NCBI GenBank assembly: GCA_000004695.1
Contig: CM000154.2
Location: forward strand, 736,001-800,000
Origin: Dictyostelium discoideum
Taxonomy: Eukaryota
DNA: 64,000 bases
Direction: 5' to 3'
Below, in pieces: positions 15,626 to 47,577 of the stretch. The notes below the pieces were generated by a model. That model searched no databases and had not been told where the DNA came from. It was given only the letters and a program-made list of their open reading frames with translations. The position numbers and the translations under genes are program-made. Position 1 is the first letter of the stretch. The number at the start of each line of letters is the position of its first letter.

Positions 15626-19503
<3,878 letters not shown>

Positions 19504-28012: not shown

Positions 28013-28641
28013 GATATATTAAATTTTATTGTAAACTATTTATATTATTATTATTATTGTTATTATTAACTATTATATATTATCTATCTATTATTAAATT
28101 TTTTTATTTTTATTTTTGTGTGTGCTGTATAAAAAAAGGGAACAATTATTAAAGTTGCTTTTTTTGAAATATCATATTAATAATAGAAATAAAGATTTTT
28201 AGATCTCCATCCCTATTGTAAAAATCAGTATACTATGATTAAATACTGATTCAAATAAAAAAAAAAAAAAATTTAAAATGATTTGTAATGAATGAGATAA
28301 TTATGTGTTTGTGCACACAGGTGAAGGTTGAAAAAAATAAAAATTAAAAAAAAAAAAATAAAATTAAAAAAAAAAAATAAAAAATTGTTGAAAAATAAAA
28401 AATAAAAAAAATAAAAAATAAAAAAAAAAAAAAAATGGTGGTTAGCAAGATAATTCCAAAATATCAAAAAAAAAAAAAATTAATCAATCGTTTTCCCAAA
28501 ATTTATAAATAGAACAAAAAAAAATAAATAAAGAAAATAAATAAAAAAAAAAAAACAATTAAATAAATAAATTATTTTAAAAGTGAAAAATTAATTTTTA
28601 TTTTAAAATTAATGATTAAATTTGATGATGACCAGGAAAAT

Positions 28642-29139
28642 TTAGAATCTGATATAAAGGATACTTAAATTTGGTTGTCTATTTCCTTCAATAATGAAAC
28701 CAAAAGTGTATGATGCATGGGCATTGATTGATTCTTGATAAGATGGAAGAGTCATAACACCTGGTGAAATACGAACCATATTCCAAAGTGAGCTTGAATC
28801 TCTTAATCTGAAACTATAATCATAACCAATATAAATATCCAAAATATTACAGTTTGTTGGATTTACAATTGTGACATCATATTGAGTGTAAGTTTTACCA
28901 CAGTCAACCCAACTATTAATACATTTGAACACTAAATAAACTTCTCTATAATGTCCATGGTCATAACAAGAACATTTGTTATCTTTTACATGACAAGTAT
29001 GTTCACCTCCACAATTACCTGGACAACTATAAGGTGGTCTTCCTCTTGCAACTGCATCATTGAACTCTTCAGAATTTTGAGCTGAAACAAATGCAATTGT
29101 TAATAATAAACCAAGTAATATTAATACTATTGATTTCAT
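28642..29139 (-). CDS. Small secreted Cys-rich protein (165 aa) with a CBM49-like carbohydrate/cellulose-binding C-terminal domain. Copy A of a tandem pair.
   Basis: Signal peptide MKSIVLILLGLLLTIAFVSA. N-terminal 8-Cys knot. C-terminal half VTIVNPTNCNILDIYIGYDYSF…LWNMVRISPGVMTLPSYQESINAHASYTFGFIIEGNRQPN resembles the CBM49 consensus (V.I.N…W…G.Y.LPSW..L.PG.S..FGYI..G..PA). Confidence 0.55.
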   Translation of the reverse strand: MKSIVLILLGLLLTIAFVSAQNSEEFNDAVARGRPPYSCPGNCGGEHTCHVKDNKCSCYDHGHYREVYLVFKCINSWVDCGKTYTQYDVTIVNPTNCNILDIYIGYDYSFRLRDSSSLWNMVRISPGVMTLPSYQESINAHASYTFGFIIEGNRQPNLSILYIRF

Positions 29140-29289: not shown

Positions 29290-29880
29290 ATAGATAAAAA
29301 AAAAAATAATAATAAATAAATAATAAAAATAATTTTATTAATTTAAATAAAAAAAGGAAATAATTATTAATTATTTCAAAGGGATATATGATTGTTAATA
29401 TTTTTTGATTGTTAGTTTTACAACCTATTAAAAGAATAAAAATACCCCCATTTTAAATTTTGAAAAAAATAAAATATAAAAAATAATAAATTTGGTTTTG
29501 TTAAAAAAAAAAAACCACATTCAAAAGCAAAAACATTTTTAATATTATAACCCTTTCCATGATTTTTTATAATTTTAATAGTTTTGGTCTTTAAATATTT
29601 TAAATTATTTTAATGAAAATATTATAAGGTTGAACATTAAAATGGTGAAAAGTAATTCCATGAGGCGCAGTTGGCCACCTTTTTTTTTTTTTTACTTTTA
29701 TTTTTTATTTCCAATACAGCGCCCCCTCAATAAATTATTTATTTAAAAAAAAAATTAAAAAAAAAAAAAAAATTTGTATATTCATTTCCAAAAAAATAAA
29801 TAAAAAAATGTGTTTTAAAAAGTGAAAAATTAATTTATTAATTAATGATTAAATTTGAAGTGATTTCCAACTTTAATAAT

Positions 29881-30378
29881 TTAGAATCTGATATAAAGGA
29901 TATTAAAATTTGGTTGTCTATTTCCCTCAATAATGAAACCAAAGGTGTATGATGCATGAGCATTGATTGATTCTTGATAAGATGGTAGGGTCATAACACC
30001 ATGTGAAATACGAACCATATTCCAAAGTGAGCTTGAATCTCTTAATCTGAAACTATAATCATAACCAATGTAAATATCCAAAATATTACAGTTTGTTGGA
30101 TTTACAATTGTGACATCATATTGAGTGTAAGTTTTACCACAGTCAACCCAACTATTAATACATTTGAACACTAAATAAACTTCTCTATAATGTCCATGAT
30201 GGTAGCAACTACATTTGTTATCTTTTACATGGCAAGTATGTTCACCTCCACAATTACCTGGACAACTATAAGGTGGTCTTCCTCTTGCAACTGCATCATT
30301 AAATTCTTCAGAATTATGAGCTGAAACAAATGCAATTGTTAATAATAAACCAAGTAATATTAAAACTATTGATTTCAT
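29881..30378 (-). CDS. Copy B of the tandem small secreted CBM49-like gene pair, differing from copy A by 5 aa.
   Basis: The 165-aa ORF differs from copy A only at Q21H, D59H, P125H, L157F and S158N. Part of the 3' flank is also shared. Confidence 0.55.
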   Translation of the reverse strand: MKSIVLILLGLLLTIAFVSAHNSEEFNDAVARGRPPYSCPGNCGGEHTCHVKDNKCSCYHHGHYREVYLVFKCINSWVDCGKTYTQYDVTIVNPTNCNILDIYIGYDYSFRLRDSSSLWNMVRISHGVMTLPSYQESINAHASYTFGFIIEGNRQPNFNILYIRF

Positions 30379-40634: not shown

Positions 40635-41986
40635 ATGTTATTTATTTTAAAATTATTATTTTTATTATGTATTATTATTATAAAAATTAATGGAGAATTA
40701 TCAAATTATTATCAATATGAAATTGATAAAAAAATAAATGATAGAATTAATAATGGTAGAGAAAGTTTAGAATCAATTAAAAAGAATTCAATATCAAATA
40801 GATGTTTGGAGGAATGTATGGAAATATTATCAAATGGTTGTAAGGATATGGATGATTTATCAAAGAGTAGATTAGCAGTTAAATTAACCAATTGTCATTT
40901 GGCAAAGAGTGGTCACAAACAGTATCCATGTAGATTTGATATGTCAATACAAGATTGTACATCTAAAATGGATCAAATGGCATTCTCAACCTATACAAAT
41001 TTTTATATATCCACAGAAAATATTTGTTATTATCTATCACAGGAACTATTTCAACAACGTACAGAACAATCAATTAATAATCTTGTTACAAGTACACATA
41101 AAACTCAAACTGTGATTAATATATTACATTCAAAAGCAGATGACATCAATGAACAAGTTGACCTATCATTAAGCAATCAAAAAAAGTTATTACAAAATCA
41201 AAAACAATTAATCGACGATTTAGATAATAGTGCCAACACAATCAATGACATTGGTAAGAAATCCATTGAAATCGAACAATCCATAACTAAACAATCAAGA
41301 CAACAACAACAATTAATCGATTCACATGATCAACTTTCAAAACAATATCATGATCAATCTAAACAATCATTGGAATTAATTAATGAAATTAAACAATCAT
41401 CAGAAACAATGAATCAACAACAAAAACAATCATTAGAAAATCAAAATCATTTAATTCAATTACAATCTCAATCCATTCAATTCATTGAAACCATTGAAAC
41501 CATCACTGATACTTCATTATCAAAATTGAAACAAGTAATAACCTTTCAAGACCAATTATTAGATGGTAATAAAATTATTATTACAATCTTAAATCAATTA
41601 AATTTACTTCAAAATTGGATTTTATCTGAAGTTATTGATTTTAAATCAATTTATTTTTATATTTCAATTTTTTTAATTGTATGTAAATTTTTAAATAAAA
41701 AAAAAAAAAAAAAAAAAAAAAATTATTAACAAAATATTTTAAATTATAATAATAATAAAATGAAAAAAAAAAGATATATTTAATATCATCAACAAAAAGA
41801 ACCAAATCAACAAGAGTACCATTATTAATTGGATTAATTATTGATATTTTTGTTGAAAGATCAATTTGTTCAACAGTTTTATCATCTCCATCAACAACAA
41901 CATCAACATTATTTAATTTATTATCAATTTTATTCAATATTCCAATAATTAAGTTTATAAGGGAAAATTATTTATTATTTACAAAT

Positions 41987-42025
<39 letters not shown>

Positions 42026-42358
42026 GAATTCACAAATATTTTTTCAAATATTGATCAAAGTATACCAACATCAAGAGAAAATATTTATTTAATGATTAAT
42101 AATATTAGAATAATTTTTATAGTTTATTCGTTGGTTATATTATTTTCATCATTTTGGTTTTATAAAGATTATGAAAAAGACAACCACCAAATGTTGGTTA
42201 CAATTTTAAAAACAGTAAAAAAGAGTGAAAAAAAGTATAGCAATTTAAAGAATCTACTTTACGAAAAAGGTTTGCTCGACAAAAATGATAAAAGATTAAA
42301 AGATCATTCTTCTGTTGAAATTACTAAATTAATTGACTCTGTTGATGATAATAATTAA
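40635..42358 (+). CDS. Candidate nuclear-fusion (karyogamy) protein of the KAR5/GEX1/Brambleberry (Tht1-like) family, 543 aa. Exons 40635..41678 and 41774..42358.
   Basis: Signal peptide (MLFILKLLFLLCIIIIKING). Cys-rich domain CLEECMEILSNGCKDMDDLSKSRLAVKLTNCHLAKSGHKQYPCRFDMSIQDCTSKMDQMAFSTYTNFYISTENICYYL, with the LA.KL..C…G core recalled for this family. A long Gln-rich coiled coil follows. Exon 2 encodes two C-terminal TM helices (TRVPLLIGLIIDIFV; IRIIFIVYSLVILFSSFWFY). GTATGT donor at 41679, acceptor aaaaaag|ATATAT. The family assignment is an inference from domain order plus the CRD pattern. The gene model itself is firmer. Confidence 0.5.
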
Positions 42359-42419
42359 TAAAAATGGAATTACAATTTTTAAAATATCTTCACAAAATTT
42401 ACATTTTTACAAAACAAAA

Positions 42420-43157: not shown

Positions 43158-43160
<3 letters not shown>

Positions 43161-45041
43161 AAATTAAATAAAATAATTTCAAATTATTTATTAATAATAA
43201 TAATTTCATTAATAATAATAACAACATCAACAATTGTTAATGGTTGTAAAGATGTTGTATTAGATTATACAGAAGATGTACCAAGTAGTTCAACTTCAAC
43301 ATGTTTAGGAACAACGCCATCAGTAACATTTAATAATTATCAGGTTTATAGTGTTTTCAAAATTTCACCAACACCAATTTCAATTGCAACCGATGTAAAT
43401 AAAAAGATAGTAACATTTAAATATGATACAACATATACTTTAAATTATAATGTTGGAGAAGGTTGTACAGAAAATACAAAAGCATTTAAATATGATTCAT
43501 TATCACCACCAGTTGCACAATTCACAGTTACTCAAGGAAAATGCTCATACTCTGAAAGTTCCATAACAATAACAAATCCTCAATCAATATCAGAATATGA
43601 ACTTAAATTAATTAATTCTACTAATGGTGGTGGTAATGGTATTATTAAATTAAATTCAACCAATCCAACTGCAACTATAAGTAAAAGTGGTCAATGGATA
43701 TTATCAGATTCTAGTTTAGGTGCTTCATATGAACCATGTGAAAGAGTGATTTCAATTGATCAACCATCAACAGGCTATCCAGAGTTTACAATTACTTCAC
43801 CAAGTTGTTATGGTAATAATGGTTCAATCGTTGTATCATCAGCTACTGCTTCAAGTTTCACTTCAATTACTTTAACAAATACATTGAATGGTAATTTAAT
43901 TACATCATCAAGTGTTGGTTCATTCACTTCACTTGAAAGTGGTAATTATATATTATCATTGACAAGTAATGCTTGTGGAAAACAATTAATTCCTGTAGCC
44001 CTGGATCCAATAATGCCAAGATTAGCATTCACCTACACCGATGTAACATGTCCATCAAAACCAAAGATTAAAGTATCAATTGATGATCCAAATATCCCAT
44101 CCACTGAAACATTTACAATGACAATCAATGGTATTGCATCAATTGATAATCTATTATCACCAATTATCACATTAGAAAATCAAACTTCTCTTCCATTTAC
44201 ATTCTCTTATAAAAATTGTTTATCAAGTTTTTCATTACCAATGAATCAACCACAAATGAATTTAGCATTTTCAATTGATAGCCAAGAGAATTCATTATAC
44301 GATTGCTCATTAACATCATCATCATCGTCGATTAATTTAAATTATGATAAATCAAGTATTACAGATTTAAATGTTAAATTAGTTAATGATGGTAGTACTA
44401 TAACACCAATTGATTCAAATTTAAATAAATATTCAATTAAAACTAATCAACAATTATCAATTTCATCATCATGTTATGTTAATCCATTATTCATTGAATT
44501 ACCACAACCTGAACCAATTATAAATGTTGATGGTGGAATTAATGGAATAGGTTGTTATGAGAATACTACGATTTCAGTTTATAATCATTTAGATTTTTCA
44601 TCAATAAAACTAGTACCATTAGATTCACCAACTACCTCTATACAATTAAATAGTGAAACTGGTCAATTTACAAATATTTATCGTAAATCTTATAATTTAG
44701 TTTACCAATATTGTTCAACATCAATTGAATCAAGTAAATTATTAAATCTTGCAAGTTCAACTTTAACTTCCTCTCAATATATTTTGGAACAAGATAGTAC
44801 TACAAATGATTTAGATTGTAAAACTGGTGGTGTTACTGTAAAAGCAACTTTTATAAAATCAGATTCAACAAAATTAGATCCAATTTATTCTTTTTTTAAT
44901 CCAAATCAAATTACACCAATTCAATTTAAAATCAATGATAATTGTATAATTGATTTAAATTTTAATCAAAATATTACTTTTAATTCAAATTGTAAGTATA
45001 ATACTAAAATTATAAATATTTATTTTAATAATGATTACTAA
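43158..45041 (+). CDS. N-terminal part (signal peptide plus repeated beta-rich Cys-containing modules) of a large type-I membrane glycoprotein gene. The frame is broken at about 45016-45041.
   Basis: Signal peptide MKLNKIISNYLLIIIISLIIITTSTIVNG. Recurring module motif C-x3-[ND]-G-S-I (SPSCYGNNGSIVV…). Confidence 0.6.
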
Positions 45042-47577
45042 TAATAATAATTGTTTTATGAAAATAGATTTAAATTTAAATAATAAACCAATAATTAAAA
45101 TTAATAATTCAACATGTTTATATTCAAATGATGGATCAATTGAAATTGATGGAAATGGTATTGATATTGGTAGTGTTTTAATTGGTGATCAATTATTTAG
45201 AAAATCTTCAAATGGAGTATATGGTGGTTTAAATGTTGGTAGTTATCAAGTTTCTTTAATTTATAGTACAATTAGTTCAAATCTATTTTGTGGTGGTCAA
45301 AAATATGATGTTGGTACCGTTACCATTGGTTCAATTGATTCTAGTTTTAATGTTGTTGTAAATTCAGTTTCAAATGCTAATTGTCAAACTAATGGTAATG
45401 ATGGTTCAATTACAATTGAAAATCCAACAACATTTAAATCAATTTCAATAGCAAGTGGTGGTGGTGGTGGTACAAATGTTGCAGTTAATGGTGTTTTATC
45501 AAATTTACAATCAGGTTTACATAAAGTTGATTTCGAAAGTATTGATTCAAAATGTAAAGGTTCATTCCCAGTTTTTGTTGGTAGTGCAGGTACAGAACCA
45601 ACTATTACTTTAAATTTAATTCAACCTTCAACATGTTATTCTGATCCTTCAATTTCATCAGTTTCAAATGTTATTGGTGATGGTATTCTCTCTATTGGTA
45701 TATTTAATTCATCAGGTGATAGTACGGAAGTTTCAAAAGTAATTGATGTAAATTCAAATAATTTACAATTCACAAGTCAAACTGGTGCTATACCAATTTC
45801 ACCAGGTAATAAAGTGTTAATCATTTATTCCGGTACATGTGCTTATAGAAAAACTATAACAATTCCACATACCGATCCATCATTATCATATAGTTCAACC
45901 TTTGATTACAATTGTTTTAATCAATTTGAAAATGGTATAATTTCAAGTTCATTAGAATCAAATTTCAATGTTGTTATAAATTCAGTTAAAGTTACAACAA
46001 CAACACCAACACCAACACCAACTACTACAACTTCAATTATTAATAACTCACCATTTGTAATTAATAATTTACAAAGTGGACAATATTCAGCATTAGTTAA
46101 ATGGAACTCAGTTTGTCAATCAGTATTACCAATTGTAACGAAATCAGTTAGCCCAATAACACCACCACCACCAACTTTTACAATTACTCATGATACTTCA
46201 ACTTGTTTATCAGATTATAACTATCATTTACAAATTACAAATATGGAAAAATATTCGAGCGTTTCAATTAACGGTAGAATTCAAGATGATTCAAATGGTA
46301 ATTTCTTTATGTTACCAGTTACAAGTGGTGAAATCATTTATAAAGATAAATCTACTCAATGTATTGGTAAGGTTAATTTCAATTTTGACCCTTTGACAAC
46401 AACCGCCACTCCTTTATCAACAAATCCAAACATTAATAAAACATTTGAAACATGTCATGGATCATGTGATGGAACATTACAAATTAGTAATAATATTTTA
46501 AATGAAACTTATTATCATTATTCATCAATTTCAATTAGAGAGAATAGTAAAAGATTTTTAACACCATTCAAACCATCAATGTCATCCGGTATTAATTATT
46601 ATGGAATTTCAACAACAAATTTATTATTTAATGAAATTGGTAAATCGAATCCATTTTGTATAATTTCAAAACCAATTTCATTTACATCTTTTGAACCGAT
46701 AATTGTAAATTTAAATGGTGAATCATGTTTAGTATTTAATAATGATACCGATATGGTTTTATATACAAATGTAACAAACCCACAAACAAATATATCAACC
46801 ATTGTAGTTTCATATAAGGGTAGTTCAAAGAATATTGGCTCCATTGAAGCTATGGTCAGAGTATTTGATGATGAAAATAGTGATATTGAATCATTGCCAA
46901 CTAGTTTAACTGCAACTTATAAATTGGTTAATACTAATACACCAAGTTCAATAATTCCATCAACAAGTAATAGCATTGCTGATTATGATAATTTATCATT
47001 TGGTAATTATTTATTAACAGCATCAATCACTAATAAACAATGTAAAAGATCTTTAGTACAATCATTTAAATTGGATAATACAACCAATAATGCATTCTTA
47101 ATTAAATTAGATACTACCAATTATTGTGAAGCTGTTAGAATAGTACCATTCAATATGAATCTATTATTTAACTATTATATCACAAATTCATCAGGTGGTT
47201 TAGTTTATCAATATTTAAATAAAACCGGTGTTGTAATTAGTGATTATTTGGATAGTGAAATGCAATACACTGTAAAAGCAGTTCAAATCAATAGTAATGG
47301 TGGTGATCAATATATAAGCTCATGTAATTTGATTGTCCAATCAAAAATTTGCCCTGTTAATAATGATTCTCAAATTAAATTAATCGTTGGTTTAGCATTA
47401 GGTTTATTGGTTGCTGCTTTCATCATAGTATATGCTATCTATAAATTAAGACAAAGACAAATTAAAAAGAATAATAATGAAAAATTAAAAGAAAATGAAC
47501 ATCCTCAAGAAGATGATGATCAAGAAGAAGAAATTGATGAAAATTATCGTCATCATAATATGATGGTTGAAATGTAA
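45031..47577 (+). CDS. C-terminal part of the same large type-I membrane glycoprotein, read in the +1 frame. It carries more Cys modules, a Thr/Pro linker (TTTPTPTPTTTTS), a TM helix (IVGLALGLLVAAFIIVYAIY) and an acidic cytoplasmic tail.
   Basis: It repeats the ORF-1 module motifs (NSTCLYSNDGSIEIDG, NANCQTNGNDGSITIEN, CHGSCDGTLQISNN). It has no signal peptide of its own and begins 11 nt before the ORF-1 stop. A single gene split by an indel or slippage fits better than two genes. Confidence 0.6.
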   Translation: MITNNNNCFMKIDLNLNNKPIIKINNSTCLYSNDGSIEIDGNGIDIGSVLIGDQLFRKSSNGVYGGLNVGSYQVSLIYSTISSNLFCGGQKYDVGTVTIGSIDSSFNVVVNSVSNANCQTNGNDGSITIENPTTFKSISIASGGGGGTNVAVNGVLSNLQSGLHKVDFESIDSKCKGSFPVFVGSAGTEPTITLNLIQPSTCYSDPSISSVSNVIGDGILSIGIFNSSGDSTEVSKVIDVNSNNLQFTSQTGAIPISPGNKVLIIYSGTCAYRKTITIPHTDPSLSYSSTFDYNCFNQFENGIISSSLESNFNVVINSVKVTTTTPTPTPTTTTSIINNSPFVINNLQSGQYSALVKWNSVCQSVLPIVTKSVSPITPPPPTFTITHDTSTCLSDYNYHLQITNMEKYSSVSINGRIQDDSNGNFFMLPVTSGEIIYKDKSTQCIGKVNFNFDPLTTTATPLSTNPNINKTFETCHGSCDGTLQISNNILNETYYHYSSISIRENSKRFLTPFKPSMSSGINYYGISTTNLLFNEIGKSNPFCIISKPISFTSFEPIIVNLNGESCLVFNNDTDMVLYTNVTNPQTNISTIVVSYKGSSKNIGSIEAMVRVFDDENSDIESLPTSLTATYKLVNTNTPSSIIPSTSNSIADYDNLSFGNYLLTASITNKQCKRSLVQSFKLDNTTNNAFLIKLDTTNYCEAVRIVPFNMNLLFNYYITNSSGGLVYQYLNKTGVVISDYLDSEMQYTVKAVQINSNGGDQYISSCNLIVQSKICPVNNDSQIKLIVGLALGLLVAAFIIVYAIYKLRQRQIKKNNNEKLKENEHPQEDDDQEEEIDENYRHHNMMVEM

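Follow-up and report, generated by a model that had tools for sequence, protein, structure and literature searches.

Introns in Dictyostelium discoideum are short, with a median length of 104 bp and a mean of 133 bp (PMC4683709). Their lengths need not respect the reading frame, as the 17,468 annotated introns are divided among the 3n, 3n+1 and 3n+2 classes in proportions of 0.335, 0.332 and 0.333, about two-thirds thus not being multiples of three (PMC1950532). We analyzed a 64,000-nucleotide (nt) stretch of the D. discoideum AX4 genome (contig CM000154.2, positions 736,001 to 800,000; hereafter the window, in whose coordinates all positions are given) and within it the locus at 43158-47577, where an earlier note had described one large membrane protein gene broken into two open reading frames (ORFs) by a +1 frameshift. 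Our analyses indicated that 43158-47577 is almost certainly a single gene, DDB_G0287833, with two exons and one ordinary U2-type GT-AG intron. The intron is an ordinary one that has already been annotated, and it is not novel.

The two ORFs lie on the + strand at 43158..45041 (ORF1, 627 amino acids (aa)) and 45031..47577 (ORF2, 848 aa), the second beginning 11 nt before the end of the first with an offset of +1. From 45016 onward the frame of ORF2 has no stop, and ORF1 closes at the stop codon at 45039-41, so that in AX4 the two frames overlap over 26 nt (45016-45041). All of these coordinates agreed with those in the earlier note. The ORFs of the window contain the poly-Asn tracts typical of Dictyostelium, and its guanine plus cytosine (GC) content varies from approximately 15 to 39% in 2-kb windows. 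The features of the gene at and around the junction of the two frames are as follows:

43158..44991, + strand: exon 1, made up of 611 codons followed by the T that opens the split codon for Tyr612; the hydrophobic N-terminal signal-like segment and the initial group of two-cysteine modules are encoded here
44992..45067, + strand: spliceosomal intron of 76 nt (3n+1) in phase 1, GTAAGT…TACTAAT…ATAG
44992..44997, + strand: 5' splice site GTAAGT, 47 nt upstream of the ORF1 stop
45036..45042, + strand: putative branch-point motif TACTAAT, read from the sequence, which contains the apparent stop TAA of ORF1 (45039-41)
45066..45067, + strand: 3' splice site AG, the first AG 3' of the donor hexamer
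45031..45067, + strand: apparent start of ORF2, an ATG and 12 codons (MITNNNNCFMKI), intronic and noncoding, absent from all orthologous proteins and unconserved as DNA
45068..47577, + strand: exon 2, comprising the remaining two bases of the codon for Tyr612, the codons for aa 613-1447 and the stop codon; it encodes further two-cysteine modules, the transmembrane helix and the tail

The earlier note had stated that no GT…AG intron fits at this position. That statement did not hold, as a segment of 76 nt runs from the GTAAGT at 44992-44997 to the AG at 45066-67, and its deletion joins the two frames into a single ORF of 1447 codons without an internal stop. The predicted spliced junction, 44991 to 45068, is …TTAATTCAAATT|ATTTAAATTTAAAT…, giving the junction peptide …ITFNSNYLNLNNKPIIK…, and the protein reads …NITFNSN-Y-LNLNNKP… with the codon for Tyr612 split T|AT, as is characteristic of phase 1. 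An exact-sequence look-up found the spliced 1447-aa product to be identical at every residue to EAL63563.1 / XP_637085.1 / Q54JR7, which has the database name [quoted passage not shown], and the reference annotation of DDB_G0287833 has its start, intron and stop all as derived here. The view in the earlier note that both ORFs belong to one large type-I membrane protein gene was right, and the cause which that note had dismissed, an intron, proved to be the answer. Comparison with the reference genome had also been suggested there, with an identical break in the reference to be counted against a frameshift; as the window is the AX4 reference it carries the same break, which in a sense is that outcome, and the annotation already joins the ORFs by an intron.

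The composition of the segment is also that of an intron, its GC content being 10.5%, whereas the coding sequences on its two sides have 26.4% and 27.0%. Its length of 76 nt falls in the normal size range of D. discoideum introns. The branch-site consensus is TACTAAC in yeast and CTRAY more generally, and such a motif would be looked for 18-40 nt upstream of the 3' splice site. The TACTAAT at 45036-42, a plausible branch site, sits 26 nt upstream of the 3' AG, and its putative branch A would be at about that distance. The + strand of the 64-kb window has only 10 copies of the hexamer GTAAGT, and several of the others likewise end long open frames and are followed by an abrupt drop in GC content. 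That a GTAAGT should lie 47 nt short of the stop codon that ends an open frame of 626 codons, and should restore the frame, would not be expected by chance. We also considered alternative GT…AG pairs that restore the frame (e.g., 44944-45067 and 44996-45173); these were rejected as they have weak GTATAA donors, would remove conserved residues and give products other than the reference protein.

Compared with canonical U2-type GT-AG introns of D. discoideum, the segment is alike in its donor and acceptor, its shortness, its AT-richness, its free length modulo 3 and the conservation of its position rather than its sequence, and it differs in no unusual respect. The one curiosity is that both frames remain open briefly into the intron, with the result that an 11-nt ORF overlap mimics a frameshift site. 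The apparent "+1 frameshift" arises because the intron length is 3n+1, and the slight overlap of the ORFs is due to neither frame meeting a stop, by chance, within a few codons of intron sequence. ORF1 has the intron-encoded tail …CKYNTKIINIYFNNDY and ORF2 the intron-encoded N-terminus MITNNNNCFMKI….

Analyses of related genomes identified full-length orthologues of 1428-1446 aa (77-94% identity, 98-100% query coverage) in another D. discoideum strain, D. citrinum, D. dimigraforme and D. firmibasis. The protein alignment is unbroken across the junction, with Tyr612 invariant in the four Dictyostelium orthologues and followed by the conserved NLNNKP…C-LYSNDGSI. At the orthologous loci the interruption was solved as the segment whose removal reproduces each protein, and each locus was interrupted once, by a GT…AG segment that falls in phase 1 of the homologous codon, before the invariant Tyr. 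These introns measure 76 nt in AX4, 83 nt in the second D. discoideum strain, 78 nt in D. citrinum, 92 nt in D. dimigraforme and 103 nt in D. firmibasis, and introns in the same place and phase were found in the more distant D. purpureum (DICPUDRAFT_147133, 82 nt) and Polysphondylium violaceum (CYY_003065, 68 nt). All three length classes are represented in the seven genomes (modulo 3, in the above order: 1, 2, 0, 2, 1, 1, 2). The donors are GTAAGT, GTAGGT or GTTTGT at the same position, and the intron GC content is 7-21% over the seven genomes and 7-11% in the four close relatives. Reading through the intron leads to an in-frame stop in all five genomes examined in this respect (AX4 and the four close relatives). 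When aligned as DNA, the exon flanks of 60 nt share 87-97% identity with AX4, compared with 39-81% for the intron, which has many indels. As the length of an intron need not respect the reading frame (PMC1950532), this pattern of conservation is that expected of an intron. It does not accord with programmed +1 frameshifting, for which the overlap and the direction of the shift would have to be conserved, nor with an error in sequencing or a mutation of one base, and all three causes proposed in the earlier note (homopolymer sequencing error, recent pseudogene and programmed +1 frameshifting) were contradicted.

With programmed frameshifting, the ribosome would shift by +1 within the overlap at 45016-45041 and so join the ORFs at translation; in its favor, the AX4 frames overlap by 26 nt with a +1 offset. 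However, neither the overlap nor the offset is conserved. In the other D. discoideum strain the segment is 3n+2 and read-through ends after two codons, in D. citrinum it is 3n with an in-frame stop, and in D. dimigraforme it is again 3n+2. The segment lacks conservation of the kind that a shift site needs and has all the attributes of an intron, and we give this mechanism next to no credence.

The protein encoded at L001 (GCA_054859385.1), labelled "Dictyostelium discoideum ACTFIR_001315", is 94-95% identical to that of AX4. The synonymous divergence between the two is approximately 0.095 and their introns differ in length by 7 nt. This divergence is rather high for a single species, and L001 may represent a divergent lineage or a cryptic species.

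Selection on the two exons was assessed separately against the four close relatives by the Nei-Gojobori method, and dN/dS (the ratio of non-synonymous to synonymous substitution rates) was 0.16-0.38. By this measure both exons are under purifying selection and neither half is decaying. These values bear on the proposal that a true frameshift mutation recently inactivated the gene. A pseudogene would account for two ORFs in different frames, and it would fit with the literature searched, in which no paper was found for DDB_G0287833, Q54JR7, XP_637085 or DICPUDRAFT_147133 and no published function or expression data were found. It is nevertheless very improbable given purifying selection on both halves, an interruption that is ancient, being common to P. 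violaceum, canonical splice signals in every genome, and the invariance throughout the family of nearly all the cysteines, before as well as after the junction.

The AX4 sequence itself was compared with independent data. In the independent NCBI assembly L007, the whole gene is identical to the window. The Logan assemblies L005 (found in 7 samples) and L006 come from different sequencing runs. They have 3-4 single-nucleotide polymorphisms elsewhere in the gene, which indicates that they are independent data, and are identical to the window over 44950-45110. The agreement of all three over these 161 nt shows that the AX4 sequence is correct. The region is very AT-rich and has short runs of T and A, in which a one-base insertion or deletion arising in sequencing or assembly could have split a continuous ORF. 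Apart from the identity of the junction region in L005, L006 and L007, such an error is at odds with the related species, all of which are interrupted at the same codon by 68-103 nt. The one-base gain or loss that the earlier note expected to fuse the ORFs would moreover insert about 25 unconserved residues that are found in no homologue. An error of this type is so improbable that it can practically be disregarded.

An environmental homologue, P0010, encodes a family member as one continuous 1189-aa ORF on a 3.7-kb contig from the Joint Genome Institute (JGI). Its matches to the product of DDB_G0287833 are colinear, with exon 1 corresponding to residues 105-467 (E 2e-20) and exon 2 to residues 561-1063 (E 1e-14). 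As P0010 is both uninterrupted and colinear, the single-polypeptide architecture does not rest only on gene predictions. An uninterrupted 1189-aa member of this family, which is otherwise confined to dictyostelids, is carried by the environmental contigs L010 and L011 (JGI 3300028164 / 3300028160), which are approximately 3.7 kb long with a GC content of 29% and an A-run at the end. These probably come from an unsampled dictyostelid-like amoeba, as either a transcript or a gene without introns.

The colinearity of the homologues also bears on the possibility that there are two independent genes at the locus, one for a secreted 627-aa protein and one for a separate 848-aa membrane protein. A prokaryote-style gene caller run on the Logan contigs does list the intron-split halves as separate proteins, among them the 848-aa ORF as P0007. 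Yet ORF2 lacks a signal peptide, neither its ATG nor its first 12 codons are conserved, the overlap of the ORFs leaves no intergenic space, and the homologues are all single colinear proteins, one of them an uninterrupted ORF. Two separate genes are accordingly a most unlikely arrangement. As a result of prokaryote-style calling, protein databases of this type contain truncated Dictyostelium "proteins" with intron-encoded N-termini.

Two points weigh against a single gene with a spliced intron, in which the splicing of 44992-45067 in vivo is inferred. The orthologue protein models are themselves gene predictions, and the only assembled short contigs over the locus (L005 and L006) keep the intron. 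The comparison at the DNA level, the dN/dS analysis and the continuous ORF of P0010 are independent of the orthologue models, and P0010 provides the only indirect support for the spliced junction in mature mRNA. We considered whether L005 and L006 might be intron-retaining transcripts and rejected this, as both break exactly at the long genomic stretches of poly-A on either side of the gene (window 43140 and 47604); with their ends in genomic A-runs they are most simply genomic assemblies, uninformative on splicing.

Regulated retention of the 76-nt intron was also considered. Translation would then end 16 codons into the intron, and a soluble 627-aa fragment of the ectodomain (ORF1) would replace the membrane-anchored protein. 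The position of the stop within the intron is unconserved between species and nothing supports functional retention, which we consider improbable.

Removal of 44992-45067 from the mRNA would yield one 1447-aa type-I membrane protein, predicted to consist, in order, of a signal peptide, at least 11 tandem two-cysteine modules of about 77 aa with an immunoglobulin (Ig)-like β-sandwich fold, one transmembrane helix and a short acidic tail. The features at the two ends of this product are as follows:

43158..43244, + strand: predicted signal peptide, aa 1-29 (MKLNKIISNYLLIIIISLIIITTSTIVNG), just before Cys30, with Kyte-Doolittle hydropathy peaking at aa 6-30 and an inferred cleavage site
47374..47442, + strand: transmembrane helix, aa 1381-1403 (IKLIVGLALGLLVAAFIIVYAIY), the top hydrophobicity window, conserved in all homologues
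47443..47574, + strand: charged cytoplasmic tail, aa 1404-1447, short and acidic, nearly invariant among the closest Dictyostelium species

The strongest hydrophobic 19-residue windows lie at aa 6-30 and the only other strong stretch is at aa 1380-1405, followed by the charged tail. This is in agreement with the earlier assignment of an N-terminal signal peptide to ORF1 and of a terminal transmembrane helix and tail to ORF2. The observation that both ORFs share the same cysteine motif was likewise reproduced, with C-x(2-5)-[ND]-G-[ST]-[IL] present at aa 217, 628, 717 and 1074. An iterated hidden Markov model of the repeat module covered aa 41-537 and 620-1283, placing the junction (611/612) in the gap between two modules, and in a four-species alignment the cysteines on both sides of the junction were nearly all invariant.

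A Pfam search with the whole protein identified no family above threshold, the only matches being sub-threshold ones in the region of the transmembrane helix and tail, with no SprB. When isolated modules were searched against Pfam, there were only faint matches to Y_Y_Y, SprB and various Ig-like models. One module was modeled with AlphaFold from a repeat alignment of 58 sequences, giving a confident model of a seven-strand β-sandwich with a predicted local distance difference test (pLDDT) score of 83.4, a two-sheet sandwich that superposes on known Ig and fibronectin type III (FN3) domains. The Ig-like assignment of the modeled module is one of structural class and not of sequence family, and the nearest known systems of this kind are the Ig-like and FN3-like β-sandwich repeats in the ectodomains of cell-surface adhesion and receptor proteins. 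An AlphaFold model of a 361-aa segment around the junction, built from five close orthologues only, was discarded (pLDDT 31.7).

Several of the modules have a "C-x3-NGSI" start that resembles the motif of the SprB repeat (PF13573), which is known from gliding-motility adhesins of the Bacteroidota. The matches to SprB were faint, occurring in three of the 58 modules (best E 0.0019), far below the curated threshold, and most modules had none; the modules here are also distinguished by their length of approximately 77 aa and a second conserved Cys. Neither the whole protein nor any of the 58 isolated modules reached the Pfam gathering threshold for SprB, and a profile search of the sequences in the PDB, where RemZ had an E-value of 0.061, returned nothing significant. 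The likeness to SprB is a lead only. A HMMER search of 1.84 billion proteins matched only four representative clusters. The product of DDB_G0287833 can best be described as an uncharacterised type-I membrane protein, restricted to dictyostelids, with at least 11 tandem two-cysteine Ig-like modules, and a role in adhesion or recognition at the cell surface is a reasonable guess from this architecture.

The product is mildly of interest for the cell biology of Dictyostelium and is not a new finding. In AT-rich, intron-containing DNA such as that of Dictyostelium, a pair of long ORFs with a one-frame offset and a short overlap is what a short 3n±1 intron normally produces, and it is advisable to check such pairs for GTAAGT…AG before a frameshift is proposed.

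In the remainder of the window, a scan for tRNA genes found none. The upstream neighbor of DDB_G0287833 (window 40635-42388) has a 542-aa product in the independent assembly, where it ends at L007:1231 (window ~42388), and its longest ORFs in the window are only 364 aa (40635..41729) and 88 aa (42092..42358). Given the length of the product relative to these ORFs, the upstream gene must also be split by at least one intron, its ORFs being fragmented in the same way as those of DDB_G0287833. The segment at 16001-18000 has a strong local GC skew (+0.37) relative to the rest of the window and overlaps an ORF of 828 aa (17017..19503). A 300-nt direct repeat is present at 28639-28938 and 29878-30177, the copies being 97% identical with a spacing of 1239 nt. 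Both copies hold a GTAAGT in the same context, which points to a small gene or exon having been duplicated in tandem recently.

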